DNA of 64,000 nucleotides, from positions 23,184 to 87,183 of the forward strand of contig JBMFUG010000001.1 of assembly GCA_049966695.1 (NCBI GenBank). The letters run 5' to 3'. Shown in pieces: positions 27,329 to 54,173 of the stretch; position 1 is the stretch's first letter, and each line of letters begins with the position of its first letter. Below the pieces are notes generated by a model. That model had not been told where the DNA came from. It searched no databases and saw only the letters and a list, made by a program, of their open reading frames with translations. This DNA comes from Acidimicrobiales bacterium (GTDB lineage: Bacteria; Actinomycetota; Acidimicrobiia; Acidimicrobiales; Palsa-688). A program made the translations under genes and the position numbers.

Positions 27329-27356
27329 CTCATGTCCAGCCAACGGACGCCGATCA
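27329..27356 (+). promoter_or_regulatory. Candidate sigma28-type promoter of the glycosyltransferase genes
   Basis: CTCATG-N14-GCCGATCA, then 7 nt, then the in-frame ATG at 27364. Confidence 0.5.
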
Positions 27357-27363
27357 AAAGTAC

Positions 27364-29706
27364 ATGACTGGCGAAGTGCTGACGGCGCCGACGGATGGCC
27401 GCGCTCGAGGGGCCCAGCGGCCACATCAGTCGCAACCGCACACCGGCACCGAGCCCGACGACATCGCATGGGTAGCACCCTTCCTGAACCCCTCAGGGTA
27501 CGGCGAGGAGGCGCGGGGTTTCCTTATGGGCCTGACGAGCAAGGGCTACCGCGTAGCAGCGCGCTCATCTGGAGATGAACCTCGTGATTTTCTAGAAGGT
27601 TTGGCCGACGACCCGGCTCTGGCACAACAGCTGCAGGCGTCTTTGACATGCCAGATAGCTCCCAACCCCACAGTAGTACTACACCTACCGGGCTACGCAT
27701 TAAGCCCAGTAGAAGGTGCCAAGTTCACAATAGGGCGGACCATGTTCGAAACGGACAGCCTTCCCGTCAACTGGGTCGACAACTGCAACAGGCTGGACCA
27801 GGTCTGGGTGCCGTCCTCGTTCAACGCTGAGACTTTTTACAAGGCCGGCGTGCGTGTGCCGGTCCACGTTGTGCCTGGAGGCGTCGACACACGACGCTTT
27901 CGACCGGGGGTAGTTCCCCTCGACGTACCCGAGGCTCGTGGCGTTACCTTCCTTAGCATCTTCGAGTGGAGCCACCGCAAGGCACCCGATGTCATCATGA
28001 GCGCGTGGGCCCGAGCGTTCAGCCCTGACAGCCCAGTGTCGCTTGTGCTGCGGTGCTTCCCGCGCGGGCAGTTCGACAACCAGGCTGGCACCACAGACGC
28101 TCTCGTGAACAACCAGCTCGCCCTTCTCGGGTTCAGCCGTACAGAAGTCGCACCAATTGTAATTATTGACCAGCAACTACCTCCCAGTGCAATACCCCGG
28201 TTGATGGCACGCGCCGATGTATTTGTCGGGGTATCGCGTGGAGAGGGTTGGGGACGTCCTCAAATGGAAGCGATGGCAAGCGGGCTAGCCGTAATAGGAA
28301 CTCGCTGGAGCGGCAACCTCGATTTCATGGACGACTCGAACAGCCTATTAGTCGAAATCGACGGTCTCGCACCGGTTGACGAGAAGATGGAAGTACCCTT
28401 CTACAGAGGCCATCGCTGGGCCGAGCCGTCGGTCGACCACTTGGTTGAGCTGCTCCGTCGAACTGCCAGGGACGCTCAGCTGGTACAGCGGCTCGGCAGA
28501 AAAGCTCGTGCCGACATAGAGGCTCGGTGGCAGTGGGACAGCGCAGCCGATATCGCCGACAAGCGCCTAAGGGCTTTGCGGCCAAGACGGGCGACCCTAG
28601 CCACGTCCGTGCCGATGACCAACCGAAACTGCGCTGTTGGCAGCCTGCACAATGAGCCCGAACCGGCGTCCGTGGGGCCGGCCTCGGGCAACCGCAATGG
28701 CTCAGCACGTCTGGACAGCCTTGCACCCTTCGCAACTCCTCCGATAGGTACGCCATCTCCCGACCAAAGCACTTCAGTGCAAGAGCTAGCACAGCTCGTG
28801 TACCGAGCGCTGTCTGCCATGAACAACGCTCTTCTTGAACAGCAGTCAGCCATAGCTGCCTTGCAAGCAAGCTCCTCCCACCAGCCTGGCAGGTCTCCCC
28901 ACGATCAGCCAAGCCTTGAAGAACAATGGTCGCGGCGCCCGTTTTGTGCCCTACCTGGCGGGCTAAGGCTCATGGCCCCCTCAGGACGCGTAGTTATGGG
29001 TTACCGGCACGATAAAGGCAAGACGTCCCACATGGACCAAATATACGTCACGTTCGAAGACGCCTTCCGAGGTACATCAGAGCGCGTCAGTTACCTTCTC
29101 ACCGAGTACCTCCCTTACCTGCGTGACAGGCACAACGTGCTAGAGCTCGGGTGCGGCCGTGGCGAACTTTTAGCCATGTTGGCCCAGCACGGCATCCCTG
29201 CAAGGGGCGTGGACTCCGACGCTGGCATGCTCGAGCGCGCCCGGCGCCAAGGCCTTTCAGTCGTACAGGCCGACCTCCTCGATTACCTAGTAGAGCAAGC
29301 CGACGCCACTGTAGATGCCATCGTCTCAGTCCAAGTCATCGAGCACATTGACCCGACGGCGTTACCCCGGCTGCTCTCGCATGCTCGCAGGGTACTGCAA
29401 CCCGGTGGCCTTCTCCTAATGGAGACAGTAAACCCGCACAACCTGACATCTGCCAAGCTGTTCTGGCTCGACCCAACTCATCGGCACCCCCTCTTCCCAG
29501 AAGCCATGGTCGTGCTGGCCGCCGCCGCCGGTTTTGATGAGACCGTTGTCCTGTTCCCTGGGTCTACCGGCGACCTCGACGCTGACCTGTCCAGGTGCGA
29601 CAGGTACGCACTCCTTGGCAAGGTTGGCAACGCCTGCCAAGAGCCTGCACCGCCAACCGCCCATGACTCCCAAGGCTTGTCCGATGCGCCCCAGTCGCTC
29701 ACATAA
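27364..29706 (+). CDS. Fusion protein: GT4-type glycosyltransferase, coiled-coil linker, class I SAM methyltransferase
   Basis: GT4 ExxxxxxxE motif GEGWGRPQMEAMASG. Methyltransferase motif VLELGCGRGELLAML...VQVIEHI...LQPGGLLLMETVNPHN. Start set at 27364 by the promoter argument (tracked ORF starts at 27268). Confidence 0.75.
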   Translation: MTGEVLTAPTDGRARGAQRPHQSQPHTGTEPDDIAWVAPFLNPSGYGEEARGFLMGLTSKGYRVAARSSGDEPRDFLEGLADDPALAQQLQASLTCQIAPNPTVVLHLPGYALSPVEGAKFTIGRTMFETDSLPVNWVDNCNRLDQVWVPSSFNAETFYKAGVRVPVHVVPGGVDTRRFRPGVVPLDVPEARGVTFLSIFEWSHRKAPDVIMSAWARAFSPDSPVSLVLRCFPRGQFDNQAGTTDALVNNQLALLGFSRTEVAPIVIIDQQLPPSAIPRLMARADVFVGVSRGEGWGRPQMEAMASGLAVIGTRWSGNLDFMDDSNSLLVEIDGLAPVDEKMEVPFYRGHRWAEPSVDHLVELLRRTARDAQLVQRLGRKARADIEARWQWDSAADIADKRLRALRPRRATLATSVPMTNRNCAVGSLHNEPEPASVGPASGNRNGSARLDSLAPFATPPIGTPSPDQSTSVQELAQLVYRALSAMNNALLEQQSAIAALQASSSHQPGRSPHDQPSLEEQWSRRPFCALPGGLRLMAPSGRVVMGYRHDKGKTSHMDQIYVTFEDAFRGTSERVSYLLTEYLPYLRDRHNVLELGCGRGELLAMLAQHGIPARGVDSDAGMLERARRQGLSVVQADLLDYLVEQADATVDAIVSVQVIEHIDPTALPRLLSHARRVLQPGGLLLMETVNPHNLTSAKLFWLDPTHRHPLFPEAMVVLAAAAGFDETVVLFPGSTGDLDADLSRCDRYALLGKVGNACQEPAPPTAHDSQGLSDAPQSLT

Positions 29707-32700
29707 CCGCGCGCCGCACGCCGCTCCTCACGCTTCCAGCAAGCGTCTGGCTCACAAGCAGGCCGCGGCCCCGCCTAGCTTCAGCGTCGACTGGGAGGGG
29801 GACATTTTTCAGCACCACAGCCTCTCGCTAGTAAACCAGGCGCTGTGCTCTCGCCTCATCCAGCGAGGCATCGACGTTGCGGTACAGGCATTAGATGCAC
29901 CGCCCCTCAATGGCAGTGCTTTTAGTAGCCCCGTACCAGAACGCAACATCAACGTCACTGGTCGCTCCCCCACCATCACGGTCCGCCATAGCTGGCCGCC
30001 CCGTTTCGACCCTCGGCCTCCCAGCTTGTGGGCACATATACAGCCTTGGGAGTTCGGCGGCGTCCCCGACACGTGGGTAAGCTCCCTCCAGCACGCAGAC
30101 GAAGTATGGGCACCGTCAACGTGGGTCCGAGACAACTACATTGCCAGCGGCCTGTCCGACGACAAGGTGCAGCTAGTACCCAACGGCGTCGACACCACGC
30201 TCTTCACGCCGTACGGCCCTCGGTACCCGCTCTCTACCCAGAAAGCGTTCCGGTTCTTGTTCATCGGTGGGCTCATAGCCCGCAAGGGCATCGACTTGCT
30301 TCTCCGGGCTTACATGGACGCCTTTTCACCCAACGACGACGTGTGCTTGGTCATAAAGGGCTTTGGCTCCAACAGTGTGTACGCCAACGGTTTGTACGAC
30401 ATGGTACGTTCGTTGTGCGCCAGCCAAGAAGGCCCGGCCATAGAGCTCATCGAAGCTGACCTGTCGCAAAATGATATGGCAAGCCTTTACCGCTCCTGCG
30501 ACGTCCTTGTACGCCCTTACCGCGGCGAAGGTTTTGCTTTGCCGGTCGTCGAGGCCATGGCCAGCGGCGTACCCGTGGTGGTCACGGCAGACGGTGCGAC
30601 GGCGGACTTCTGTGATGACTCCGATGCATGGCTTTTACCGAGCCGACGGCAAACTTTACGACAGGTTGGTGGCGTCGGCCCCAGCAGATTGGGTTATTGG
30701 ATGGCCGAACCAGACTTAGGCTATCTAACTAACTTATTGAGAGAGCTGCCGAACCTTCAGGCCGAGTCTGCAATAAAAGCCAAGCGGGCCCGTGACCAGG
30801 TTGTGCACAACTACAGCTGGGACAAAGTCGTCGACGTTGTAGAGGCGCGGCTCAGGAACATGGCAGCGAACAGCACCTCGCCGGCTTTTAGAGACCGCCG
30901 TAATCGCTCCACAGGCCCAACCAGTGCTCAGCCTTACAAGGATTATAAAGTGAACAGCCATGCCGGACTGCCTACAGCACCAAAAGTGCTCCTCTCGGCT
31001 TGCTTGATCGTGAAGGATGAAGAAAAAACACTGCCCGACTGCTTAGAATCCCTCCATCGAGTGGTCGACGAGGTCGTCGTCTACGACACCGGCTCCAGCG
31101 ATGGGACAGTCGCCCTGGCAAAGCGCGCGGGTGCGAGGGTGTTCCAGGGTTACTGGGACAACGACTTCAGCCGAGCGCGCAATGCCGCTTTGGAGCAGTG
31201 CAGCGGGGACTGGGTGCTTTGGGTGGACGCCGACGAGCACTTCGTGTGCGACGCTGTGCCAAGGCTCCGAGGGCTCCTCGCTCAATTGGGACGCGCGGAA
31301 GAGCCTGACGCGTTGCTGGTGGACATCTACAACTTTGGCGGGGACGGCTCCATGCTCGGCAACGTCCATCGCGCATTTCGCATCTTCCGCAAGTCTGCCT
31401 GCTGCTGGTACGGCATGCTGCACGAGCAGGTAGACCTGCGGCCCGCTCTCGCAAGCTCACGCTCCGTCAAGGCGGCCGTGCTGGAGGGTGCCCACATAGA
31501 CCACTACGGCTACCTGGACAAGGTCATCCGCGAGCGTGACAAGCTCGCTCGCAACTTGCGCCTAGCGGAGGCTGCCTTGGAGAGCGAGCCACTAGAGGGC
31601 CAAGAGGGGATGCCGCAGCTCAACTTCGCTCGCTCCCTGGCCGCCCTCGGCCGCTGCGACGAAGCACAGCCTCATTTCGAAGCCGCTCTCGCCTTGGCCC
31701 ACGAAGGCGTCCAAAGGCGCACCGTGCTGCTGCATTTAACCCAAAACCTGCTGACATTAGAGCGTTACGTAGACGTCCTCCGGTACACAGAGATGTTTAG
31801 GCAGGCCAGCAAGAAGACCGGCCTCGTCGACTACCTTGAAGGTGTCGCGCGTAGACGTCTGGGCCAGCTCGACGACGCCATCGGCCTCTTCGAAAGGGCA
31901 GGCGAGCTTGTAGACGACAATGGCTTCGCTTACCCCGAGGCGATGTTGCACGCTGAGCTAGCCGCCGCGCTCGTAGACGCGGGCAGGCCGGCAGACGCCG
32001 CCGAGCACCTTGTCAAACTAGTGGGCGAAGGCCACAACGTCTTGGCGATGACCGCCGCCCTGAAAATCTTTGCGTCAACAGGCAAGCCCCCAGAAGAGCT
32101 TGCTGCCGCTATGCCCGAAGACGACCTCGACAAGGTCGGCGCGGCTCTGCTCCTGGTGCCGCCTGTCGTGGCGGCACCAGTGGCCGAGGCTCTGTACGCA
32201 CGGCTCGGGCCGCGTCCAGCCCTGCTCGCTGCCGCCATCCGCTTCGCGCCCGCCCTGCCCGTCCTGCAGGCGCTCGAGTGGTCCGCACGCCTGAGGGCCA
32301 TCGGCATGTCCAGCCGATGCCCTTTGCTCTCTCAGGCACAGACAGCCGTGCTTGACACACGAGACCGAGTGCGCGCCGCTCTTACAGCTCATGCGGCCTT
32401 TGGGGACCCTGTAGCGGCCTCTCTCGCCCTGGATTTAGCACCGGGCGTGCCCCTAGCTCAGCTGGCGGCCGTTCTTGCCGAGGTCACGGTGCTAGACCCA
32501 CCTATGACACCAGACTTTGCGCGAGCCGTTGCCGGCCCCGGCGCTCCCGCGGCAGGGCCAGTTGGGTCGCCGGACGGTCGCCGCGACGCTGTGGCCACAG
32601 CTCTCCGGGAGCTCGGCTACGGGGACCTAGCTGAGCAAATCAAGAACGGCTGGCAAGATGACGACCCGACCGCGCCCTTTGCAGCTCAGGTCGAGGCCGT

Positions 32701-32716
32701 GGCTGCCGATCGCTAG
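29684..32716 (+). CDS. Fusion protein: GT4-like plus GT2 glycosyltransferase domains with a C-terminal TPR-like helical repeat region
   Basis: GT4 motif RGEGFALPVVEAMASG, paralogous to the preceding gene. GT2 motif SACLIVKDEEKTLPDCLESL...VVVYDTGSSDGT...WVDADE. Ala/Leu-rich helical repeats at the C-terminus. Start is uncertain (ATG 29684 with AAGG SD; tracked ORF starts at 29534). Confidence 0.7.
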   Translation: MRPSRSHNRAPHAAPHASSKRLAHKQAAAPPSFSVDWEGDIFQHHSLSLVNQALCSRLIQRGIDVAVQALDAPPLNGSAFSSPVPERNINVTGRSPTITVRHSWPPRFDPRPPSLWAHIQPWEFGGVPDTWVSSLQHADEVWAPSTWVRDNYIASGLSDDKVQLVPNGVDTTLFTPYGPRYPLSTQKAFRFLFIGGLIARKGIDLLLRAYMDAFSPNDDVCLVIKGFGSNSVYANGLYDMVRSLCASQEGPAIELIEADLSQNDMASLYRSCDVLVRPYRGEGFALPVVEAMASGVPVVVTADGATADFCDDSDAWLLPSRRQTLRQVGGVGPSRLGYWMAEPDLGYLTNLLRELPNLQAESAIKAKRARDQVVHNYSWDKVVDVVEARLRNMAANSTSPAFRDRRNRSTGPTSAQPYKDYKVNSHAGLPTAPKVLLSACLIVKDEEKTLPDCLESLHRVVDEVVVYDTGSSDGTVALAKRAGARVFQGYWDNDFSRARNAALEQCSGDWVLWVDADEHFVCDAVPRLRGLLAQLGRAEEPDALLVDIYNFGGDGSMLGNVHRAFRIFRKSACCWYGMLHEQVDLRPALASSRSVKAAVLEGAHIDHYGYLDKVIRERDKLARNLRLAEAALESEPLEGQEGMPQLNFARSLAALGRCDEAQPHFEAALALAHEGVQRRTVLLHLTQNLLTLERYVDVLRYTEMFRQASKKTGLVDYLEGVARRRLGQLDDAIGLFERAGELVDDNGFAYPEAMLHAELAAALVDAGRPADAAEHLVKLVGEGHNVLAMTAALKIFASTGKPPEELAAAMPEDDLDKVGAALLLVPPVVAAPVAEALYARLGPRPALLAAAIRFAPALPVLQALEWSARLRAIGMSSRCPLLSQAQTAVLDTRDRVRAALTAHAAFGDPVAASLALDLAPGVPLAQLAAVLAEVTVLDPPMTPDFARAVAGPGAPAAGPVGSPDGRRDAVATALRELGYGDLAEQIKNGWQDDDPTAPFAAQVEAVAADR
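32685..32712 (+). promoter_or_regulatory. Candidate sigma28-type promoter of fliC
   Basis: CTCAGG-N14-GCCGATCG lies inside the last codons of the upstream gene, 73 nt before the fliC ATG. Confidence 0.5.
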
Positions 32717-32785
32717 AGACGGCCCAGCACTGGGCAACCACAGGGTGCTTACGGAAGAGCCCCCTTTAGACCCCATGGAGGAAAA

Positions 32786-33916
32786 ATGGGTCTTGACATT
32801 GTCACCAACATAATGGCCCAGCAGGCCTCGAACGACCTGTCCACCAACGAAGCCAATATGCAGTCAGCTTTGGAAAAGCTGTCCTCTGGCTACCAGATCA
32901 ACAACGCGGCAGACGACGCATCTGGCCTAGTGATAAGCCAGCACTTGCAGGCTCAGATAGGCGCCTTCCAGCAAGCGCAGTCCAACACGCAGGCCGGCAT
33001 CAACGTTATCCAGACAGCAAGCGGCGCTCTCAACACGGTGAGCACGATCCTGCAGCGCATCAACACCCTTGCAGTGGAAGCTCAAAACGGCACAGCCACT
33101 GACAATACAGCGATCACCGCGGCCCAGGACGAGGTGAACCAGTCTCTCTCGTCAATAGTCGACATCGCCCAGACCACCGTCTACGGCGACAACCAGCTCC
33201 TCGTCCACGGCTCAGCGAGCAGCGTCAACTATACGTTCCAGGTTGGCTACGACTCCTCTAACGCGAGCCAAGTCGCCTTCTCAGTCTCGGCGTTGACCCT
33301 GGCAAACCTTGGCCTGGTCATGAACTCTGTCGACTTCACGGCGGCTGGCGGCATTTCCAGTGTCGTCAGCAACCTCGCTTCTGGTACTTACGATATCAGT
33401 ATCTCCGCTGATGCCTCCGCCGGTGCCTCCGCAATGGCGATCAATATTGCGAATGGCAGTGATGTGCTGGGCACTGCGGTTGTAACCGATGGCGGCACGG
33501 CCGGCGAAGTCGCTACGATCAACCTCGGGACTTTCGGCGTGGTCAACCTCACTCTAAGCGGTCCGCTGACATCGGCAACCGCGCTCACGGCAACGCAGAC
33601 ATATGCGAACATCAACAGTACGACGAGCCTAGCCTTGGGCAGTGCCGACGTCATAGACGTCGTACAAAATGCCATCGCGACGGTATCGTCAATGCAAGGC
33701 GAGTTCGGTGCTTACCAAAACGAACTGCAGCACATCTCCGACAACGAGACTGTGATGGTACAAAACCTGCAGTCGTCCAACGCAAGCATCGAGGACACCA
33801 ACATGGCATCGGAGATGGTCAACTTCACCCAGGACCAAGTCCTCGTCCAAGCAGGGGTCTCTATGCTGGCGCAGGCCAACCAGATACCCCAGTACGTGCT
33901 CAAGTTGCTCGGCTAA
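32786..33916 (+). CDS. fliC: Flagellin
   Basis: N-terminal NIMAQQASNDLSTNEANMQSALEKLSSGYQINNAADDASGL. C-terminal MVNFTQDQVLVQAGVSMLAQANQIPQYVLKLL. Confidence 0.92.
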   Translation: MGLDIVTNIMAQQASNDLSTNEANMQSALEKLSSGYQINNAADDASGLVISQHLQAQIGAFQQAQSNTQAGINVIQTASGALNTVSTILQRINTLAVEAQNGTATDNTAITAAQDEVNQSLSSIVDIAQTTVYGDNQLLVHGSASSVNYTFQVGYDSSNASQVAFSVSALTLANLGLVMNSVDFTAAGGISSVVSNLASGTYDISISADASAGASAMAINIANGSDVLGTAVVTDGGTAGEVATINLGTFGVVNLTLSGPLTSATALTATQTYANINSTTSLALGSADVIDVVQNAIATVSSMQGEFGAYQNELQHISDNETVMVQNLQSSNASIEDTNMASEMVNFTQDQVLVQAGVSMLAQANQIPQYVLKLLG

Positions 33917-33949
33917 GGCTGGGCAGTCCTTGGCACGTGCCAACGGGCA

Positions 33950-33986
33950 GCGTAGCGGCCGGCAAGCACCACGACGGCCGCTACGC
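33950..33986 (+). terminator. Perfect 12-bp stem-loop downstream of fliC
   Basis: GCGTAGCGGCCG, 13-nt loop, CGGCCGCTACGC. No U tract, which is common in high-GC genomes. Confidence 0.45.
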
Positions 33987-34126
33987 CCCAGGCAAGTGCC
34001 CCCGTGCTACCCCCGCCGAGCCAGGACCTTAAGCCTTACTGGGCGAGCATGCCGGTCCTTTGCGTGAGGCATTAGCAGCGATCAGCAGGAGGCAACGATG
34101 TCGGTCAGTTCAAGTGGTTCTTCAAC

Positions 34127-36703: not shown

Positions 36704-36728
36704 TTACAGACTTGAGGAGAAGTAGTAC

Positions 36729-37683: not shown

Positions 37684-37810
37684 GCTGGCGGCCCGACAAA
37701 GACGATCGGGCAAAGTCCAAAGACGACGGGCCAGCTGAAGCAACGCTGGTGGCGAGCTCCTATTGGTCCTGCTCGGCTCTGCGGCCCTGCCCGGCTGCCC
37801 CGGGACCTCT

Positions 37811-38326: not shown

Positions 38327-38581
38327 GGTACTTCTCCGGTTCAAAAGTAAACGTCGTAATAGGGAGGGCAGCCACAACGGGCCAGCGGAGCCGTAACGCC
38401 ACGATGATGCCAAAGCCCACTGACCGAAACCCACTTGCCAAGGCAACTATAGCCCGTGCCGCACCCCGGCGGGCGGTACGAGCCGGTGCAGCACCCCAGC
38501 GGGCGACGCACCCGACAACGCTCGTCGCTGGCTCGCCACACGAAAACTCGGACACTCGAACGCTCTGCGTGGCCTGGCTTT

Positions 38582-38609
38582 CTCAAGTAAGCCGCAGCCC
38601 TGCCGATCA
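38582..38609 (+). promoter_or_regulatory. Candidate sigma28-type promoter of the flgB operon
   Basis: CTCAAG-N14-GCCGATCA, then 5 nt, then ATG 38615 of a 41-codon upstream ORF. Confidence 0.5.
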
Positions 38610-38736
38610 CGCAGATGAGCAGGGAAGCAATTACCCGTACGCCACGGACTGGCAGGGCCCTAACTTCTTCGGAGGCAGTGGTGTACCTTCTGCTCGCAGC
38701 GCCGCACCGGGCGGCATTAGATCTAGCGGCACGGCC

Positions 38737-39099
38737 ATGAACGGCCCCCTTTCCGACCTGGCCACGAACGCCCTGTACGAGGCGATGCAGGGGCTATGGG
38801 CACAACAGCAGGCAGTGGCCAACAACGTGGCCAACGTCGACACGCCTGGCTACCAGGCAAAAGATGTGAGCTTTGAGTCGAGCTTGTCCCAGGCGATAGC
38901 GGCGGGTGACCCGTCTCAGATGCAAATTTCTGTCACTAATTCGACCGCTCCAGACCAACAGGACGCCAACAACGTAAACCTGGCAGACCAGATGGCGGAG
39001 GGTGAAAAAGCAAGCATGCAGTTCCAGACCATGGTGGACGCGATGAACGCCAAGTTCCAGTTGCTTAGCACAGCCATAAGCGAGTCAGCGAGCGGCTAG
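38737..39099 (+). CDS. flgB: Flagellar basal-body rod protein FlgB
   Basis: LWAQQQAVANNVANVDTPGYQAKD. Start set at ATG 38737, which has no SD upstream. The tracked ORF begins at 38404. Confidence 0.8.
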   Translation: MNGPLSDLATNALYEAMQGLWAQQQAVANNVANVDTPGYQAKDVSFESSLSQAIAAGDPSQMQISVTNSTAPDQQDANNVNLADQMAEGEKASMQFQTMVDAMNAKFQLLSTAISESASG

Positions 39100-39208
39100 C
39101 AGGACAGGACCGCCATAAGCGAGCCAGCGAGCGGCTGGCTGTACTAGACGGGCCAACCAGCAGCGAACAGCTAAGCAGACCGGACCGGCCAACAGGAAAG
39201 GACCAGAA

Positions 39209-39646: not shown

Positions 39647-39656
39647 GGTTAAAGCA

Positions 39657-44799: not shown

Positions 44800-45227
44800 A
44801 GCGCTACAGGTTCCAGCTGGAGGCGGTGCTCCGGGCCAGGCGTGTGCAAGAAGGCGTCGCTCGGGCAGCTTTGGTAGCGGCAAATTCGGCTGCCCGGGCA
44901 GCTGAGCTCGCCACCAAGGAAGCGCTGGCCCACTACCAGCAGGTGGCACAAAAACCTGGGGAAGACTTTATGTCCGACCGAGAGCGGGCCACGCTGGCAG
45001 CCAAGTCCTTTTTCCAAGCAAACGAGTCGTACCGACGGGCCAAGGCGGCCGCCGAGGCAGCCGTGGCGCAGTACCTGGAAGCCCGCCGCCACGTGGCGAT
45101 GCTGGACCGCCTAGACGAACGCCAGCGCGCAGAGCACGCTTTGGCTGTCCAGCACGAGGAGGCCGTGCTGGCGGACGAGCTGGCTACCAACCGCAACCGG
45201 AGGAAAAGGGCGGCGGGGCGCTCATGA
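44796..45227 (+). CDS. fliJ: Flagellar export protein FliJ
   Basis: MKRYRFQLEAVLRARRVQE coiled coil. Positioned after fliI with an ATGA overlap. Confidence 0.6.
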   Translation: MKRYRFQLEAVLRARRVQEGVARAALVAANSAARAAELATKEALAHYQQVAQKPGEDFMSDRERATLAAKSFFQANESYRRAKAAAEAAVAQYLEARRHVAMLDRLDERQRAEHALAVQHEEAVLADELATNRNRRKRAAGRS

Positions 45228-46432: not shown

Positions 46433-48438
46433 GTATGACAACGATCGCCCCGGCTGAACCAGGCACAACCCAGCCGGCCACAGCACCGGCTGGGCCCTCT
46501 GCCGGCACCACTGGCGCGCAGACCTTCGCAGGCATGCTCGCCGTCATGGGGGTCGTGCCCCAGGCTCAACCGGCCCAACCTCCAGCACCAACCGGCACTG
46601 CGGCCCAACAGACAAGCTTGGCGCCGCCAGCCAGCGTCACGGCCACGGCCGCTCCTGCTGGCGCTGCTCTTGCGACCAGCCCGGCGTCCGCCCCTACTGA
46701 GGCACCCGGGGAAGCCGGCAGCAGCTCTACGGCTCAGGCATCTAGCCCCGTCACCCAGGCCGGCAGCTCTATGGCCCAACCGGGCAGCTCACAGACGGAC
46801 GGGCCCGGTACCGCGACCATTACGGGCAGCCAGACCACCGACCACGCCCAGGGCAGCCTCAACGACCAAGCCGGGACAGGCAACAGCGCAACTGCCCAGG
46901 TCCCAGCGAAAGGCACAGCACAAGTCGGCACAGCACAAGTCGGCACAGCACAAGTCGGCACAGCGCAAGTCGGCACAGCACAACCGGCCCTGTCGGTCGC
47001 GCTGCTCACCGGCAGCGCCACGGAGGGCCAGCGCACTGTGGCAGCAGGGCCCGGAGCTGCAACTGAGGCCGCCGGTGCCAACGCCGTCTCTCAACATGCG
47101 ACAACCCTGGTTGTCCCGGGGGGGACGGCCACTTCTGGGACAGCGGTAGTCACGGTCAAGGCACTGGCCCCCGGCAGTCCCGCCGAACCTGCTGGGCCTG
47201 CTGGGCCTGCTGGGCAGAGTGCTCTTCTTGCCGCACCTGGGAGCTCGGCCAACCTCGCCGCACCTGGGAGCTCGGCCAACCTCGCCGCACCTGGGAGCTC
47301 GGCCAACACGACGGCTACCCAGTCGAGCGCAAGTGCAGCCACCGCGGTCCGGGCCGAGGGCACGTTAGCCAACAGGCCAGGGACTGGCGCAACACCAGCT
47401 TCGGCGCGAGACAGCCGTCCTGGTGCCCAAGCGGGGACGAACCCGTCGGCGGTCACAGACCGAGGCCAAGATGGCCCCCTGGTCGCCGGCTCTCAAGCCG
47501 GAGCCCAGGACCAGCAACCGGTACTGGCCAGCCACGGCGATAACGGTGGCGGCCAGGGCGCTGCGGGCCAAGCCGATAGCAGCACAGGTGGAGCTCCGGG
47601 CCAAGCCGGTGCCAGCGCGGATGCGGCCCACGGCGATAACGGTGGCGGCCAGGGCGCTGCGGGCCAAGCCGATAGCAGCACAGGTGCAACGAACCTGTCT
47701 CAAAAGTCTCCTGCCTCTGCTGGCACTGCGTCCTCACAAAGCTTCCGCCCCGCCACCATTGCCACGGCTCCATCCCAGGACGCCCACAGCCCCTCAACCG
47801 GGCCAACCGGCAACACCTCCGGTTCCCAGTCGCCCGGGGCTGGGACGGGCGCCCAAAAGACCGCCATCTCCGCCAGCAACCAGCCCGGTGCAAGCCAGAC
47901 ATCCTCGAGCACGGCCACGGCACCAACTGCTGCGCTGCTCCAATCGTCTCGCGGCGCTCCCGTCGCCGCGGGCCAAGCAACGACTAGTGCCAATAGCGCC
48001 AACCAGCCCGCAAGCACGTTGCCTATCGCTAACCAATTGGCCGATGTCATCACGCCAGCAGCCAACCAGCCTGACGGCACCTACCAGGTGAGCATCCATC
48101 TTCACCCCGAAGAGCTGGGGACGGTACACGTCGAGCTGCACATTGAGTCGGGAGTGGTCAACGTCTCAGTGCACACCGAAGGCGACGCCACAAGGGATCT
48201 GCTGCGCCAGAACATGGGCCAGCTGCGCCAGCAACTGGCGGGAAGTGGTCTAGCAACCGGGCACTTCGACGTCGAGAGCGGCTCGGCACAGGCCCACCAA
48301 GACAGCGGGCGCCCGCTCACCAGCCCATTGCCACCCGGGCCGTCCGCTGACAACCAAGAAGAGCAAGTGCCGTTAGTACCAGACAGTGGGCCCTACCTGT
48401 TGCCCTTGGTCAACGGCGCCCTAGACGTAAGGCTGTGA
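46429..48438 (+). CDS. fliK: Flagellar hook-length control protein FliK (repeat-expanded)
   Basis: C-terminal Flg_hook-type domain VSIHLHPEELGTVHVELHIESGVVNVSVHTE. Start ATG 46429 overlaps the upstream stop (ATGA). 669 aa. Confidence 0.7.
   Translation: MSMTTIAPAEPGTTQPATAPAGPSAGTTGAQTFAGMLAVMGVVPQAQPAQPPAPTGTAAQQTSLAPPASVTATAAPAGAALATSPASAPTEAPGEAGSSSTAQASSPVTQAGSSMAQPGSSQTDGPGTATITGSQTTDHAQGSLNDQAGTGNSATAQVPAKGTAQVGTAQVGTAQVGTAQVGTAQPALSVALLTGSATEGQRTVAAGPGAATEAAGANAVSQHATTLVVPGGTATSGTAVVTVKALAPGSPAEPAGPAGPAGQSALLAAPGSSANLAAPGSSANLAAPGSSANTTATQSSASAATAVRAEGTLANRPGTGATPASARDSRPGAQAGTNPSAVTDRGQDGPLVAGSQAGAQDQQPVLASHGDNGGGQGAAGQADSSTGGAPGQAGASADAAHGDNGGGQGAAGQADSSTGATNLSQKSPASAGTASSQSFRPATIATAPSQDAHSPSTGPTGNTSGSQSPGAGTGAQKTAISASNQPGASQTSSSTATAPTAALLQSSRGAPVAAGQATTSANSANQPASTLPIANQLADVITPAANQPDGTYQVSIHLHPEELGTVHVELHIESGVVNVSVHTEGDATRDLLRQNMGQLRQQLAGSGLATGHFDVESGSAQAHQDSGRPLTSPLPPGPSADNQEEQVPLVPDSGPYLLPLVNGALDVRL
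46912..46983 (+). repeat. 15-nt in-frame tandem repeat (GTAQV) x about 4.5 in fliK
   Basis: ggcacagcacaagtc is iterated. Read directly. Confidence 0.9.
47230..47310 (+). repeat. 27-nt in-frame tandem repeat (AAPGSSANL) x3 in fliK
   Basis: gccgcacctgggagctcggccaacctc is iterated. Confidence 0.9.
47532..47686 (+). repeat. About 59-nt identical direct repeat x2 (period 96 nt) in fliK
   Basis: ccacggcgataacggtggcggccagggcgctgcgggccaagccgatagcagcacaggtg occurs at 47532 and 47628. Confidence 0.9.
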
Positions 48439-48442
48439 ACCG

Positions 48443-49048
48443 ATGAGCGACATTTCCGCGACTAGCTCAACGAGCACCGGGCCCACGGCCACGCTGCCTC
48501 CCGGCTACAGCGCCCCCACCGACAGCACCAGCACGACCAGCCAGTCGAGCCTGAACGGCGTCAATGCCGACACCTTCTTGCAACTTCTCGTGGCCCAGCT
48601 CCAGTACCAGGACCCAACCAGCCCAGTCGACCCCACAGAGTTCCTGTCGCAAACGGCGTCGTTCGAAGAAGTGGAAGAGCTGACCAGCCTGCAGAGCTCG
48701 CTGTCGAGCCTCGTAAGCGCTCAACAGGCGGGGGCGGCCACGGCGATGCTTGGGTCCCAGGTCACCGGTACAGACGCAAATGGCAAGCAAGTGTCTGGCA
48801 TCGTGACCGGTGTCCAGCTGACATCGAACGGCCCCACCCTCACCGTAGGCAACAGCACCATCGCCTACAGCTCAGTTACCAGCGTAACGACGGCGTCAAG
48901 CGCGTCCGGCACCACCAGCTCGTCGTCCAGCACAACCGGCTCGTCAACCACCACGGGCACCACTGGCTCGTCGTCTGCCACTAACAGCTCGTCCGCCACC
49001 GCTAGCCCGTCAACCTCGTCAACCTCGTCAACCTCGTCGAGCTCTTAG
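48443..49048 (+). CDS. flgD: Flagellar hook capping/assembly protein FlgD with poly-Ser/Thr tail
   Basis: DTFLQLLVAQLQYQDPTSPVDPTEFLSQ. The C-terminal ~55 aa are almost entirely S/T/G. Confidence 0.8.
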   Translation: MSDISATSSTSTGPTATLPPGYSAPTDSTSTTSQSSLNGVNADTFLQLLVAQLQYQDPTSPVDPTEFLSQTASFEEVEELTSLQSSLSSLVSAQQAGAATAMLGSQVTGTDANGKQVSGIVTGVQLTSNGPTLTVGNSTIAYSSVTSVTTASSASGTTSSSSSTTGSSTTTGTTGSSSATNSSSATASPSTSSTSSTSSSS

Positions 49049-49084
49049 GAGCGAGACCAACCCAAACAACAAAGGAGGAAGCCA

Positions 49085-50356
49085 GTGCTCCGTTCACTGT
49101 CCAGCGCAGTCTCCGGGCTCGACGCCAACCAGGAGATGATCGATACCATCGGCAACGACATCGCCAATGTCAATACCACCGGCTATAAGAGCAGCAGCGT
49201 CGAGTTCGAGGACTTGCTCAGCCAGACCATAGCCGGTGCCACTGCACCAAGCTCCGGTCAGGGTGGCGTCAACCCAACTCAGGTCGGCCTAGGGGTGAAG
49301 GTGGCCGGGATCGAGACCAACTTCACCCAGGGCAACTCCGAACAGACCGGCAACCCGCTTGACTTGGCCATCCAGGGCGACGGCTTTTTCATTTGCAACG
49401 CCAACGGCCAGACCTACTACACCAGAGCTGGTTCGCTGCAGCTCGACGCCAACGGCGACCTGACAACGCCCGATGGCTACCTGGTCCAGGGCTGGGCCGC
49501 TGATGCGAAAGGCAATATCAACACCAGCGCTCCGCTGACCAACCTTGCCATCCCCTCGGGGCAATCGATCGGGGCCAACGCCACTCAGAACATAAACCTC
49601 GCAGGCAACCTGGCGCCACAATCTGGTTGGACCGACCCCGACAGTTCAGCCTCGGGCCCGGGCACGTCCACTTCCGTCACGGTCTACGCGCCCAACGGCT
49701 CGACAGAGACCCTGAGCCTGGTCTTCACCGAAGGAAGCGCTGGCCCCACGAGCTGGAACGTGTACGGGGCGCTAATAACACCCGGCTCCACCACAGCGCC
49801 CACCTACAGCTCAATAGGGACATTGAGCTTCAACAGCGACGGCACATTGGCCAGCGGCAACACCTTACCGCTCAAGTTCTCCCCTACGAGCGGTACGACC
49901 ATAAACATCAACTTCACCGACTCCTCCGGCAACCCGACCGTAACGGCTTACTCGGGCGATGACACCTTGTCGGTGGCGAGCCAAGACGGCAACGCCTCAG
50001 GCACCCTGCAGAGCTACAGCATTGGCAGCAACGGCGTCATCCAAGGCGTGTTCAGCAACGGCCAAACAAAAGACCTGGGCCAGATCGCCTTGGCCACCTT
50101 CGCCAACCCTGACGGCTTGCTGCGCGCAGGGGACACAGACTTTACCGCCACTGCGAACTCCGGCTTGGCCCAGATCGGCACCCCCGGCAACGCCAACTGG
50201 GGCACCATCGAAGCGGGGACGCTGGAGTCGTCCAACGTGGACCTGGGCACCGAGCTCACCGAGCTCATCGAAGGCGAGCGTGGGTTCCAAGCGAACTCAA
50301 GCGTCATCACTACCTCGGACCAGCTACTGCAAACCCTGATCAGCATGAACCCATGA
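49085..50356 (+). CDS. flgE: Flagellar hook protein FlgE
   Basis: N-terminal MLRSLSSAVSGLDANQEMIDTIGNDIANVNTTGYK. C-terminal LESSNVDLGTELTELIEGERGFQANSSVITTSDQLLQTLISM. GTG start with SD AAAGGAGGAA. Confidence 0.88.
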   Translation: MLRSLSSAVSGLDANQEMIDTIGNDIANVNTTGYKSSSVEFEDLLSQTIAGATAPSSGQGGVNPTQVGLGVKVAGIETNFTQGNSEQTGNPLDLAIQGDGFFICNANGQTYYTRAGSLQLDANGDLTTPDGYLVQGWAADAKGNINTSAPLTNLAIPSGQSIGANATQNINLAGNLAPQSGWTDPDSSASGPGTSTSVTVYAPNGSTETLSLVFTEGSAGPTSWNVYGALITPGSTTAPTYSSIGTLSFNSDGTLASGNTLPLKFSPTSGTTININFTDSSGNPTVTAYSGDDTLSVASQDGNASGTLQSYSIGSNGVIQGVFSNGQTKDLGQIALATFANPDGLLRAGDTDFTATANSGLAQIGTPGNANWGTIEAGTLESSNVDLGTELTELIEGERGFQANSSVITTSDQLLQTLISMNP

Positions 50357-50516
50357 CCCCCTAAAGTGCGACCCTCCTAAAGCAAGCCGGTACCAGCGGG
50401 CCGCAAGCGGCACGCGGCTCGTGGACGGCTTGGTGAGGTAGCGCCTTCTTCACTTTCTCGCTTCGCGTCTCTATGACGCCTGGGACCGCCATTGGGCACT
50501 GAGCTTGCCCCCCACG

Positions 50517-50545
50517 CTCATACGCCTGTGCTGCCCTGCCGATCG
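50517..50545 (+). promoter_or_regulatory. Candidate internal sigma28-type promoter upstream of flbD-motAB
   Basis: CTCATA-N15-GCCGATCG, with a spacer 1 nt longer than the other six copies. Lies 64 nt before the flbD ATG. Confidence 0.35.
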
Positions 50546-50609
50546 TGAAGGAGCCGGCCAACGGACTGGCCGGGCGCTTTTAGCGCTGGCAACCCGACGG
50601 AGCGGGGCA

Positions 50610-50879
50610 ATGATCCTACTCACACGGCTCAACGGCCCGCAGTTCGCGGTCAACGCGGACTTGATCGAGCGTGCCGAAGCGACTCCCGACACCGTCCTCA
50701 CCCTTGTCGACGGCACAAAGTACCTTGTCGAAGAGAGCGTGCAGGAGGTGATCGAGCGGGTACGCACGTTCCGCGCCTCGGTACTGGTCGCTGCCAAGGA
50801 GCTTGAGCGGACGGCAGACCAGCCCCTGGCCACTCTAAGGGCCCTTCCCAAGCCTGCCAACGAAGCTCAGGAGACCTAG
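50610..50879 (+). CDS. flbD: Flagellar protein FlbD
   Basis: MILLTRLNGPQFAVNADLIERAEATPDTVLTLVDGTKYLVEESVQEVIERV. Start ATG 50610 (tracked ORF begins at 50505). Confidence 0.75.
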   Translation: MILLTRLNGPQFAVNADLIERAEATPDTVLTLVDGTKYLVEESVQEVIERVRTFRASVLVAAKELERTADQPLATLRALPKPANEAQET

Positions 50880-50881
50880 CC

Positions 50882-51679
50882 GTGGACCCTGCGAGCTTTA
50901 CCGGCATCGGCCTCGCACTTTTCTCCCTTTTCGTGGCGATGATCATGGACGGGGGCAACCCTGCCGCGCTCATCGCCCCTTCCTCGATACTGCTGACCTT
51001 TGGCGGCACGATCGGCGCGGCCACTGCGGGAATGCTCATGAGCGACGCCAAGGCGCTACCTACGATATTGAAGAGCGCCCTTACGACCAAGGTGAGCGCC
51101 CCTGACGACGCAGTCACCACGGTGGTCTCTTTCGCCGAAAAAGCCAGGCGCCAAGGGCTGCTGGCCCTAGAAGAAGAAGCACGCAACATTGACGACGCCT
51201 TTCTCAGGAAAGGCATAGAAATGGCTGTGGACGGCACTGACCCGGAGGAGATACGCGAAATACTGGGCAATGACCTCGACGCCATGAAAGCCCGGCACCG
51301 TGCCGGGGCCAAGTTCTTCGGGGACATGGGCGGGTTCGCCCCGACAATGGGGATCATAGGCACCGTGATGGGGCTCCTCCACGTGCTGCAAAACCTTTCC
51401 ACTCCCAGCACGTTGGGCCCCATGATCGCAGCAGCCTTCACCGCCACGTTATGGGGCGTCATGCAGGCGAACATCTTTTGGATCCCGATATCCAACAAGC
51501 TGAAGCGTGCCAGCGAGGTAGAGGTGAGGCGCATGGAGCTATTGCTTGAAGGGATACTGGCGATCCAAGCGGGCGCCAACCCTCGGGTCGTCGAGCAACG
51601 CCTGCTTTCCTACCTTTCGCCAAAGGAACAGGCCGCGGCCAGGGAGGCCCGGGAAGCAGCCAAGACGAAGGCGGCTTGA
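50882..51679 (+). CDS. motA: Flagellar stator protein MotA
   Basis: 4 TM helices, GGFAPTMGIIGTVMGL and AAAFTATLWGV motifs. GTG start. Confidence 0.85.
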   Translation: MDPASFTGIGLALFSLFVAMIMDGGNPAALIAPSSILLTFGGTIGAATAGMLMSDAKALPTILKSALTTKVSAPDDAVTTVVSFAEKARRQGLLALEEEARNIDDAFLRKGIEMAVDGTDPEEIREILGNDLDAMKARHRAGAKFFGDMGGFAPTMGIIGTVMGLLHVLQNLSTPSTLGPMIAAAFTATLWGVMQANIFWIPISNKLKRASEVEVRRMELLLEGILAIQAGANPRVVEQRLLSYLSPKEQAAAREAREAAKTKAA

Positions 51680-51680
51680 G

Positions 51681-52550
51681 ATGGCACGCCGCCGTCCCCA
51701 CGTGGACGCCGAGGAGGAAGGCCCCAGCAGGGAGCGATGGCTTCTCACCTACTCCGACATGATCACGCTGCTCATGGTGCTTTTCATCGTGCTCTTCGCC
51801 CTGGGCCAGACCGACATCCGCAAGTTCGATGCTTTCAGGGACAGCTTCAGGCCCATACAGGAGCCCACTCCCAATACCCCCCCCGGTGGCCCAGGAGTGC
51901 TGTCGGCCCCAGCTGCGATCGCGCTAGAAGAGCAAAACGCCTTCGCTATGCTAACGCGTGCCATCGCCAGTGCGTCGGCGACGGCCAAGCAGCTTGACCA
52001 GCAACATTCCGGGAAAACGGCCTCTGGCCAAGACCAACCGGGCGAGCCCAACCAAGCCCTCCAGGCTGCCGAGCGCGAGTACCAGACGCTCAACAACGCT
52101 GAGAGGGCCATGGAAAATGCACTGGTGCGGGCGGGGCTGGCCAATGAGGTGACGTTCAACATCGACCAGCGTGGCCTGGTGGTCACGATACTGACCGACA
52201 AGATCCTTTTCCCGACGGACTCGGCGCAGCTGCAGCCAGAGGGAGTCAAAATCCTGAACGTGCTGGCACCCGTACTTGCCTCGCTGCCCAACCTGATCGA
52301 CGTGGAGGGCGACACCGACAACCAGCCGATCAGGGGAGGGCCTTACCCAGACAACTGGGCACTGTCCGCGGCACGAGCTGTCGCCGTGGTCGAAGACCTG
52401 ATACACGAGCACGGGATCAACCCGGACCGCCTTCAGGCGACAGGCAACTCCGACACCCGCCCCGTGGTGCCCAACAACACGCCCCAGCACCGTGCCGAAA
52501 ACCGCCGAGTTGAAATAGTCGTCTACTCCACGACGTTGGCGGCACCTTGA
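51681..52550 (+). CDS. motB: Flagellar stator protein MotB (OmpA-like C-terminal domain)
   Basis: WLLTYSDMITLLMVLFIVLFAL with the conserved Asp. C-terminal NWALSAARAVAVV...NRRVEIVV. Confidence 0.85.
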   Translation: MARRRPHVDAEEEGPSRERWLLTYSDMITLLMVLFIVLFALGQTDIRKFDAFRDSFRPIQEPTPNTPPGGPGVLSAPAAIALEEQNAFAMLTRAIASASATAKQLDQQHSGKTASGQDQPGEPNQALQAAEREYQTLNNAERAMENALVRAGLANEVTFNIDQRGLVVTILTDKILFPTDSAQLQPEGVKILNVLAPVLASLPNLIDVEGDTDNQPIRGGPYPDNWALSAARAVAVVEDLIHEHGINPDRLQATGNSDTRPVVPNNTPQHRAENRRVEIVVYSTTLAAP

Positions 52551-52664
52551 GCAGGGTTCATATGACCGAGACAGCCGCGACAGCCCTGAGACTTATGACC
52601 GAGACCGACCGACAAAAAACACAGACCGGCAGGCCGGCCACCGAGGCAGCCCTAAGGCAAGAAG

Positions 52665-53120
52665 ATGGCCACAAAAACAGCTAAAGACAATGCCCCGGCC
52701 GATGGCGCTAAGGGCAAGCACAAGAGCAAAAAGAAGCTCTTCGTCATCCTCTTGGTCGTCGTGGTCGGCGTGGCGGGTTTCGGCTACAAGACCATGGCCA
52801 AAAAGCCGGCGGGCAGCCCCGCCCCCGTTACAGGCCCAGTGGTCGTCGAGAGCTCCCTCACGGTCAACTTGAGAGACGGCCACTACCTGCAGTTCACGGC
52901 TGGGCTCCAATTGGCCGTGGGCAAGCCCAGCACCGCCCTCAACAACTACACGCCGGAGATCATGGACATCTTGATCTCGCAGGCGTCTGGCTTCACCGAA
53001 GCAGGCCTGCTGGCCCCTGGCGGCCGCAAGGCACTAAAAAGAGACATCCTCAGCGCGTTGAACAAGTTCTGGCCCGGTGCCGTCGTCGCCGTGTACTTCG
53101 AGCAGTTCGTCATGCAATAA
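52665..53120 (+). CDS. fliL: Flagellar basal body-associated protein FliL
   Basis: Lys-rich N-terminus, a single TM helix, and C-terminal VVAVYFEQFVMQ. Confidence 0.7.
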   Translation: MATKTAKDNAPADGAKGKHKSKKKLFVILLVVVVGVAGFGYKTMAKKPAGSPAPVTGPVVVESSLTVNLRDGHYLQFTAGLQLAVGKPSTALNNYTPEIMDILISQASGFTEAGLLAPGGRKALKRDILSALNKFWPGAVVAVYFEQFVMQ

Positions 53121-53222
53121 CTCGCCAGTCTGCAATAACCCGCCGCCTATGCCATAGCCCCCCGTGCACCAACAGCAGGCCACGTAGCCAAAAGACCTCC
53201 CAGCCACCCCAGCGCGGCATTG

Positions 53223-53250
53223 CTCAGGTCGAGGTCATGCCTGCCGATCA
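53223..53250 (+). promoter_or_regulatory. Candidate internal sigma28-type promoter of fliM
   Basis: CTCAGG-N14-GCCGATCA, then 8 nt, then the in-frame ATG at 53259. Its first 13 nt are identical to those of the fliC copy (CTCAGGTCGAGG). Confidence 0.5.
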
Positions 53251-53258
53251 CAGCGCAG

Positions 53259-54173
53259 ATGACCGCGCCCGCCAACCAGAGCACCGTGGTGCCGTTGGGG
53301 CGCGCAGGCAGGCCGAAACCGCTTAGGAGGTTCCGGATCAGGCCTGCCAGCACCCTGAAAGACGAGCACGAACAGGTCTTGGTCCTCGTTGGCCAGAGCT
53401 TCTGCCGTCTGTTCGGTGCGGACATGTCGACCTTCGTGCGCGGCGACGTCGACATCGACATGTTGCCCGTCCAGCAGTGGTCATGGGACGACCTGCTCAA
53501 CTCGTTGCCCGAGCCTTACTGCGCGGGCCGCCTGGCGATGCCGCCGATGGTGGGCACGGGGCTCGTCACCTTGGACATGTCGCTCGCTACTGCGGTCGTC
53601 GAAAAGCTCCTGGGCGGGGCGGGCCGGCCCCAGGAACGTGACGAGCCGCTGACCGACGTCGAAGTGACGCTCTTATCGGAACTTCACCAGCATGCCGCCG
53701 AGGACATGGCTGAGGCTCTCTCCTTGGTCGTCGCCACCAAGCCCGTCACGACCCGCCAAGAAAGCCGCCTCGAGCTGATCCGCGCCGTACCGGGGCACAC
53801 GCTGCTCGTAGCCCTCGAGTTCGACATCGACATGAAAAGTGCCAGCGGGCGCCTGCGCATTGCCATCCCAGCGGAAGCGCTCATGGCCCATTTGGAGGCC
53901 TTCGCAGGCACCTCCACTAGCAGTGCCACCTTGAACGAGACCGGCAGGCTGTCGCTTTGCGCCGTCGAGGCAAGTGTGCGCTTCAACGACACTCCTATTA
54001 CTTCGCGCCAGCTGCTCGAACTTGAGCCCGGAGATGTCCTGGCCCTCGCTCACCCGACGACCAGCCCCCTTACCCTTTACGTCGGCGGCGTCCCCTTTTT
54101 AAAGGTCCTAGCTGGCCGCCGAGGCGCACAAAAAGCGTTCGCAGTAATTGGGCCTTACAAACAAACAACCTGA
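53259..54173 (+). CDS. fliM: Flagellar motor switch protein FliM
   Basis: Positioned between fliL and fliN. Has a RRFRIRP...QVLVLVGQSFCRLF core region and a C-terminal SpoA-like LEPGDVLAL. Start set at 53259. Confidence 0.75.
   Translation: MTAPANQSTVVPLGRAGRPKPLRRFRIRPASTLKDEHEQVLVLVGQSFCRLFGADMSTFVRGDVDIDMLPVQQWSWDDLLNSLPEPYCAGRLAMPPMVGTGLVTLDMSLATAVVEKLLGGAGRPQERDEPLTDVEVTLLSELHQHAAEDMAEALSLVVATKPVTTRQESRLELIRAVPGHTLLVALEFDIDMKSASGRLRIAIPAEALMAHLEAFAGTSTSSATLNETGRLSLCAVEASVRFNDTPITSRQLLELEPGDVLALAHPTTSPLTLYVGGVPFLKVLAGRRGAQKAFAVIGPYKQTT

Follow-up and report, generated by a model that had tools for sequence, protein, structure and literature searches.

Sigma-28-type promoters and predicted leaderless first cistrons in the flagellar gene cluster of an Acidimicrobiales bacterium

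Introduction

In enterobacteria and Bacillus, sigma-28 drives late flagellar genes only, and the transcripts of these class 3 genes have 5' leaders with a Shine-Dalgarno (SD) sequence. In Actinoplanes missouriensis, a single promoter type, CTCA(N15-17)GCCGAA, reportedly stands before all units of the flagellar cluster, a result that Jang et al. (J Bacteriol, 2016) are said to have obtained by rapid amplification of 5' cDNA ends (5'-RACE). A single promoter type likewise appears to stand before the units of the flagellar cluster considered here, which lies in a stretch of 64,000 nucleotides (nt) from an Acidimicrobiales bacterium (assembly GCA_049966695.1, contig JBMFUG010000001.1), from herein referred to as the window. 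Three of its units, headed by flgN, by the gene for a GT4 glycosyltransferase-methyltransferase fusion (GT-MT) and by fliM, are predicted to give mRNAs with no leader, or almost none, while the unit headed by flgB is predicted to give a leadered mRNA. A sequence-only reading of the window, made earlier, had taken all four to be leaderless.

Both the promoter and the type of mRNA have precedents in Actinobacteria. Actinobacterial FliA/WhiG promoters have the same bipartite consensus with a 16-nt spacer, published for WhiG1/2 as a -35 element xT(C/A)Ax, 16 nt and a -10 element GCCGA (PMC13595943), although the window belongs to a different class, the Acidimicrobiia, which is not covered in the papers on those promoters. 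Leaderless mRNAs are routine in the phylum, as the sequence-only reading had rightly said, and the leaderless gene often heads a polycistronic mRNA (10.1101/834739), as it would in three units of the window. As in the leaderless mRNAs of Mycobacterium, Streptomyces, Corynebacterium and Actinoplanes, the spacing from the -10 element to an ATG or GTG is short and constant, with no SD; in A. missouriensis, atsA, with a transcription start site (TSS) 1 nt before the start codon, has been called leaderless (PMC11064477). However, most documented leaderless cases have a housekeeping-type TANNNT -10 element, whereas the predicted cases of the window would combine a promoter of the alternative-sigma type used for flagella with flagellar genes. 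No description of leaderless sigma-28 flagellar transcripts was found in the literature searched, and neither PMC13595943 nor PMC8325347 contains the word “leaderless”.

With the class 3 (sigma-28/SigD) promoters of enterobacteria and Bacillus, the promoters of the window share the -10 element GCCGATAA with an extended GC, the general geometry (PMC12784957), and the control of late genes such as fliC and flgN/flgK. They differ from the class 3 systems in that the same promoter type also heads early genes (flgB, fliM and flhA) and that three units would have no leader. The earlier claim that such an arrangement stands outside the accepted flagellar models was overstated, given that neither the promoter consensus nor leaderless mRNAs are new to Actinobacteria; what is described here is a new example of established phenomena and no new mechanism.

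The promoter motif and its seven sites

The motif CTCA-N16-RCCGAT has six copies in the window, against 0.19 expected from shuffled sequence, and 0/100 shuffles reach six. All six copies are intergenic within the flagellar cluster and are oriented toward the downstream gene, and a seventh copy, with a 17-nt spacer, is located 5' of flbD. The seven sites head flgN, GT-MT, fliC, flgB, flbD, fliM and flhA (Table 1). The four -10 octamers flagged in the sequence-only reading, and the distances given there from octamer to codon (flgN 6 nt, GT-MT 7 nt, flgB region 5 nt, fliM 8 nt), proved exact, and at all four sites CTCA is found exactly 16 nt upstream of the octamer, giving the form CTCA-N16-(G/A)CCGAT(C/G)A. 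The probability of finding an ATG or GTG 5-8 nt past a random position of the window is 0.10, and such a codon follows four of the seven promoters (P = 0.003). The spacer of 16 nt is kept in 18 sequences for fliM, in 14 close sequences for flgN and in 7 lineages for flgB, with the exception of flgB in one lineage, L033, where it is 17 nt (L numbers denote related loci throughout).

The sites are assigned to sigma-28-type (FliA/WhiG) promoters on the basis of the motif enrichment, the match to the WhiG1/2 consensus (PMC13595943) and the presence in the cluster of a gene for a FliA_WhiG-family sigma factor, and we infer that the motif works as a promoter. The product of the sigma gene scores 190 bits against the NCBIfam model TIGR02479 (FliA_WhiG), a narrow margin over the cut-off of 189.6, and is likely to be the cognate factor of all seven promoters. 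No sigma-70-like promoters were found in the flgN, GT-MT and fliM intergenic regions. It is barely plausible that CTCA-N16-GCCGAT is instead the operator of a regulator, or an RNA element, with transcription starting elsewhere. A LuxR-type regulator is indeed encoded in the cluster, but both elements and the spacer length match the FliA/WhiG consensus, the spacer is free in sequence while being fixed at 16 nt in length, as is typical of a bipartite promoter, the cognate sigma gene is present, and the sites stand in the correct orientation before seven flagellar units.

Further exact copies of the octamer GCCGATCA are found at 20814-20821, 52325-52332 and 54485-54492. These were rejected as promoters, as they have no CTCA at the -35 spacing; they sit inside or antisense to genes (the csrA region, motB and fliN) and are chance matches.

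Predicted leaderless first cistrons

We consider it rather probable, taking the explanation as a whole, that the cluster consists of seven sigma-28-type units, of which three have leaderless first cistrons and the flgB unit has a leader. Each unit would be transcribed from a FliA/WhiG-type promoter of the form CTCA-N16/17-(G/A)CCGAT. In flgN-flgK-flgL-fliW-csrA, in the GT-MT glycosylation unit and in the fliM-to-flhB unit, the -10 element is 6-8 nt from the first start codon, and transcription would start on that codon or no more than about 2 nt away. The products would be leaderless polycistronic mRNAs, with the first cistron, which has no SD, read from a 5'-terminal AUG or GUG, and with later cistrons relying on their own SDs or on coupling. 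The flgB promoter, in turn, would yield a leadered mRNA in which translation of flgB is coupled to a short SD-led upstream open reading frame (ORF).

The position of transcription initiation can be predicted by analogy with the fliC promoter of Pseudomonas aeruginosa, in which GCCGATAA spans -15 to -8 (PMC12784957); with the octamer so placed, +1 is the 8th nt after it. By this geometry, +1 of the GT-MT unit would be the A of ATG 27364, with a predicted 5' untranslated region (UTR) of 0 nt. The predicted 5' UTR of flgN is also 0 nt, the G of the GTG being the 7th nt after the octamer and the T the 8th in the window, and the G being the 8th in relatives with a 7-nt spacer. For fliM, +1 would be the G at -1 or else the A of the ATG, which is the 9th nt, and the predicted 5' UTR is 0-2 nt.

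ATG 53259 is strongly supported by sequence comparison as the real start of fliM, which would then be near-leaderless. The closest genomes to the window are metagenome-assembled genomes (MAGs) of Acidimicrobiales and Acidimicrobiaceae, and a genome scan gave 17 related loci with FliM identities of 63-84%. All of them (17/17) have the sequence C/T-T-C/A-A, a 16-nt spacer and G(C/T)CGATNN before the fliM ATG. The distance from octamer to ATG is 8 nt in 11 sequences, including the window, and 9 nt in the other 7, although the DNA upstream of the -35 element can not be aligned among relatives. Homology begins at residue 1 in 15/17 relatives (tblastn), there is no upstream in-frame start in 15/17, and a stop is found within 2 codons in 10. 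The FliM N-terminus consists of nine variable residues, constant in length, followed by the invariant VVPLGRxGRPKPLRRFRVRPA. The SD score of fliM is 0 kcal/mol, compared with -8 to -11 for fliC, flgE, fliS, fliI and flhA, and neither the window nor its closest relative (L001) has any SD-like sequence 5' of the gene. The extension of the fliM ORF to TTG 53220 occurs in the window alone and takes in the promoter. In many of the relatives L002-L017, the GAGGGG or GAAGG found upstream of fliM falls inside the promoter discriminator.

GTG 24537 is, by the same kind of evidence, strongly supported as the real start of flgN, a predicted leaderless first cistron. The flgN loci came from a metagenome scan with the cluster sigma factor as the query. 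In 14 related sequences (71-87% amino acid identity), CTCA/CTAA-N16-(A/T)CCGATNN is followed by 6-7 nt and then GTG. These 6-7 nt are not conserved in sequence, except that the position directly before the GTG is always a pyrimidine, which fits transcription initiation on the G of the GTG. An in-frame TGA is found two codons upstream of the GTG in the window, and the homology of flgN starts at residue 1 (tblastn), with ten variable N-terminal residues, fixed in length, preceding LNDVSTVLWRERQLLELLVFKLEE. The source annotation also begins FlgN, at 172 amino acids, from the promoter-adjacent GTG. The SD duplex of flgN has a calculated energy of -6.9 kcal/mol, which is due to a GAGGTG overlapping the -10 element; this GAGGTG is not conserved, and no conserved SD precedes flgN among the related sequences compared. 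The leaderless-type layout of flgN is not universal, as the more distant L082 has a flgN with a 17-nt leader carrying AGGAGG.

For GT-MT, a leaderless start at ATG 27364 is probable and moderately supported. Glycosylation genes vary between relatives, for which reason more distant homologue contexts were used, and no GT-MT orthologue adjoining the sigma gene was found among the relatives. Alignment with homologues starts only at about residue 65 of the long ORF, the one that opens at ATG 27268. In annotated homologues, the conserved W-x-AP-x-LNPSGYGEEARGF is preceded by 0-30 residues, compared with 36 in the form starting at ATG 27364 and 68 in the form starting at ATG 27268, and the N-terminus MTGEVLTAPTD of the shorter form aligns with the N-termini MSLLAAVD, MTALWELTD and MTAGGDDLHFSND of homologues. 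The same promoter is found 6-10 nt from the start in 3/5 homologue contexts fetched: CTCA-N16-GCCGATGG-N10-ATG in L071 (61% identity), with no in-frame start upstream; TTCA-N16-GCCGATAG-N8-ATG, in frame, in L070; and CTCA-N17-TCCGATGA-N6-GTG in L082. The remaining two, in L068 and L081, are operon-internal. Neither ATG 27268 nor ATG 27364 has an SD, and the energy of the duplex with the anti-SD is given for GT-MT as -3.2 kcal/mol. Of the two ORFs that the sequence-only reading held to start too early, at 27268 and 53220, only that of GT-MT is a real candidate for revision, as the source annotation of FliM (304 amino acids) already begins at 53259.

Several points weigh against leaderless starts. 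The exact TSS is deduced by a rule that was taken over from a promoter of a proteobacterium. The 8-9 nt spacing of fliM predicts a leader of 1-2 nt and not a strict 5'-AUG. For GT-MT, the source annotation gives an 812-amino acid protein from ATG 27268, in an ORF containing its own predicted promoter, the first 36 residues of the protein are not conserved, and third-position GC (GC3) does not separate the two starts. GAGG or GAAGG is found 3-4 nt before the fliM ATG in 11/17 relatives, and no terminator was found after fliL, so that read-through into fliM is possible; the GAGG/GAAGG could be a weak SD on read-through transcripts, in which case translation would be both leaderless and SD-led. 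Lastly, most lineages have GTG at codons 10 and 11 of fliM, which leaves a downstream start some formal room in part of them.

The promoters might therefore be real while most of the FlgN, GT-MT and FliM protein is made from longer read-through transcripts, the leaderless species being minor. The lack of an intrinsic terminator from fliL to fliM and the GAGG/GAAGG of the relatives speak for such an arrangement, as does the position of GT-MT, which follows the sigma gene in the same orientation at a distance of 720 nt, with no terminator found between them. We nevertheless regard it as unlikely, since the window, with its score of 0 kcal/mol, and L001 have nothing resembling an SD before fliM, the flgN spacers are unconserved and without a conserved SD, and the tightly kept spacing from promoter to codon is hard to square with an incidental promoter. 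Another arrangement, in which the true starts are located downstream (GTG codon 10 or 11 of fliM; TTG codon 11 or GTG codon 17 of flgN) behind SD-less leaders of about 30-50 nt, would account for the variability of the first 9-10 residues of FliM and FlgN and could make use of the fliM GTG codons, but appears decidedly improbable. The start codon next to the promoter (ATG or GTG) never varies, and the variable residues that open the protein keep exactly the same length throughout, no lineage having a stop or an indel there. The fliM gene of L008 has no alternative start before codon 44, the alternative codons are neither conserved as starts nor preceded by an SD, and a 5'-terminal AUG would be used anyway. 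We infer leaderless translation of flgN, GT-MT and fliM as the arrangement best fitting these observations.

The flgB promoter and its leader

The fourth flagged site does not fit the same pattern. The codon ATG 38615, taken in the sequence-only reading as a leaderless start upstream of flgB, was rejected as the start of flgB itself: it is out of the flgB frame, opens a separate 41-codon ORF, and, apart from the window, is shared only by L072/L073, of which FlgB is 95% identical. It is absent from L074, L076, L025, L033, L078 and L079, where the homologous positions read CTG (L076), GGG, GAG and similar. The flgB promoter, on the other hand, is conserved across 7 lineages. The window gene call for FlgB is 120 amino acids, and most FlgB homologues have 120-127. 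The predicted +1 of the flgB promoter is G38617, which is within the flagged ATG, so that by the usual sigma-28 geometry the codon probably lies partly upstream of the TSS.

There is a small chance that ATG 38615 is nonetheless a genuine leaderless start in this strain, with 41 codons translated up to a TGA that overlaps the flgB ATG and so couples flgB without an SD. The codon is in frame with the upstream ORF described below, whose end at 38740 overlaps the flgB ATG at 38737. However, the six other lineages lack the ATG, which falls within a conserved RNA element, the predicted +1 is inside the codon, and a spacing of 5 nt is outside the 6-9 nt of the conserved leaderless sites. On comparison of the lineages, ATG 38615 is a lineage-specific accident. 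The leaderless reading of the four sites thus stands strongly for flgN and fliM, on account of their conserved geometry, stands moderately for GT-MT, and fails for ATG 38615.

Beyond the promoter, the flgB leader has a conserved order of elements, namely AGCAGGGAAGCA, then CCGTACGCCA(N)GGACTGGC, then TCGGAGG, then (A/G)TGGTGTAC, and an alignment of the 7 lineages has 35 invariant columns. In 8 sequences of 7 lineages, the SD-led upstream ORF has 12-38 codons and encodes a peptide that is not conserved. Its stop codon and the flgB start overlap in the form RTGA in 6/8 sequences and TGATG in 1/8, and in the remaining 1/8 the stop lies 5 nt into flgB. The overlap of the stop of an SD-led ORF with the start of flgB implies translational coupling.

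No Rfam family matches were found in the whole window or in the flgB leader, a consensus fold of the leader showed no covariation, the paired columns being invariant, and the leader as a whole is not more stable than shuffles (z = +1.8). No claim of a structured RNA is therefore made for the flgB leader beyond local hairpins. Pairing is possible between the conserved GUACGCCA (38637-38644) and UGGUGUAC (38679-38686), spanning the start of the upstream ORF; it would form in place of the GCCA-CGGAC-UGGC hairpin. The hairpin consensus of the leader, GCCANGGACTGGC, has an exact copy inside fliK at 47376-47388 (GCCAGGGACTGGC, as in L025, L033 and L079).

Leadered units and GGA motifs

Four of the seven units, headed by fliC, flgB, flbD and flhA, have leaders rich in GGA motifs. 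There are nine ANGGA in the 308 nt of these leaders, against 0.64 expected (P = 3e-8). The GGA motifs, which are also kept in relatives, fall either in the SD or in the loops of predicted hairpins, and a hairpin of the flbD leader of L016 has a compensatory change from A-U to C-G. Multiple A(N)GGA in loops and SDs are what is looked for in a CsrA-regulated leader, and the cluster also encodes CsrA (and FliW).

These leaders have counterparts among described CsrA targets. The flgB leader resembles that of Escherichia coli iraD, which is repressed by CsrA via a translationally coupled upstream ORF (PMC5574718): one GGA is in a hairpin loop and one is in the SD of the upstream ORF that runs into the start of flgB. 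In fliC, as in Bacillus subtilis hag, which is under CsrA-FliW control (PMC6529632, PMC7652899), the leader has one GGA in an upstream hairpin and another in the SD. In contrast to iraD and hag, the putative targets in the window are not flagellin alone but include flgB, flbD/mot and flhA.

Together, the leader sequences suggest CsrA control of several flagellar operons beyond flagellin. More tentatively, the sigma-28 regulon of this Acidimicrobiia clade might be split into four leadered units controlled by CsrA-FliW (fliC, flgB, flbD/motAB and flhA) and three leaderless units without a handle for CsrA on the first cistron; this is a possibility that we hold to be less probable than its opposite.

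The flagellar cluster and other features of the window

The window has a G+C content of 64%, and a Pfam search places the flagellar cluster at 20.5-62.5 kb. On the minus strand are csrA, fliW, flgL, flgK, flgN and the gene of the LuxR-type regulator (Pfam), with fliW and csrA as the last genes of the flgN unit (flgN-flgK-flgL-fliW-csrA). The plus strand carries in its first part the sigma factor gene, GT-MT, a second glycosyltransferase gene, fliC, fliD and fliS, and in its later part flgB, flgC, fliE, fliF-fliK, flgD, flgE, flbD, motA, motB, fliL, fliM, fliN-fliR, flhB and flhA. In the roughly 620 nt that separate the sigma gene from the GT-MT ORF (26644-27267), no ORF matched Pfam or NCBIfam, and no anti-sigma candidate (FlgM/RsiG) was found. 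Coordinates are given in Table 1.

Table 1. Features of the flagellar cluster, numbered from the first nucleotide of the window
Feature	Positions	Strand	Details
csrA	20568 to about 20858	-	Pfam CsrA, E = 1e-21
fliW	21015-21464	-	Pfam FliW, E = 1e-23
flgN coding sequence	24019-24537	-	Pfam FlgN, E = 1e-19; predicted GTG start 24537
flgN-unit promoter (predicted)	24544-24571	-	CTCA 24571-24568, 16-nt spacer, ACCGATGA 24551-24544
FliA/WhiG-family sigma gene	25684-26643	+	Pfam sigma-70 regions 2, 3 and 4
GT-MT-unit promoter (predicted)	27329-27356	+	CTCA, 16-nt spacer, GCCGATCA 27349-27356
GT-MT coding sequence	27364-29706	+	Pfam; probable ATG start 27364
fliC promoter and leader (predicted)	32685-32785	+	Promoter 32685-32712; 73-nt leader 32713-32785; GGA hairpin GCUU-ACGGAA-GAGC; SD CCAUGGAGGA
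flgB-operon promoter (predicted)	38582-38609	+	CTCA, 16-nt spacer, GCCGATCA 38602-38609
flgB 5' leader (predicted)	38610-38736	+	About 120 nt; AGCAGGGAAGCA, hairpin GCCA-CGGAC-TGGC, TTCGGAGG as SD of the upstream ORF
Flagged ATG	38615-38617	+	Opens the 41-codon ORF 38615-38740
Upstream ORF of flgB	38678-38740	+	SD-led; GTG GTG TAC...; 20 codons; TGA overlaps the flgB ATG as ATGA
flgB coding sequence	38737-39099	+	Pfam Flg_bb_rod
flbD/motAB/fliL promoter and leader (predicted)	50517-50609	+	17-nt spacer; 64-nt leader 50546-50609; two GGA hairpins, the second holding the SD
fliM-to-flhB promoter (predicted)	53223-53250	+	CTCA, 16-nt spacer, GCCGATCA 53243-53250
fliM coding sequence	53259-54173	+	Pfam FliM, FliMN_C; predicted ATG start 53259
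flhA promoter and leader (predicted)	58964-59091	+	Leader about 85-100 nt (58992-59091); GGA motifs; hairpin GGCCC-AAGGGAUG-GGGCC

At the edge of the cluster, directly downstream of csrA, a second sigma factor gene (19500-20435, minus strand) encodes a protein with region 1.2, of the SigB/RpoD-like group. At the other end, the ORF after flhA (61109-62503) resembles the N-terminal part of FlhF only weakly, scoring 28 bits where the cut-off is 174.

Four non-flagellar ORFs have a candidate ATG 6-8 nt past a TANNNT element, at 2422 (minus strand, TACCTT), 7013 (minus strand, TACCCT), 14998 (plus strand, TAGAGT) and 38317 (minus strand, TACCAT), and the ATGs at 2422 and 7013 are the first of their ORFs. 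These are candidate housekeeping-type leaderless genes, and they suggest that leaderless initiation may be general in the organism.

Implications

For annotation, the analysis fixes the starts of flgN and fliM and argues for the shortening of GT-MT by 32 codons. The promoter motif can be used for start calling in the Acidimicrobiia, a class that is flagellated but experimentally unstudied.

As a single promoter type apparently serves early and late genes, post-transcriptional control is the obvious place for control of assembly order. The three predicted leaderless units, set against four units with GGA-hairpin leaders, one of them with a coupled upstream ORF, make a concrete testable model. 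Should the division of the regulon into these two sets prove true, the CsrA-FliW checkpoint would reach well past flagellin.

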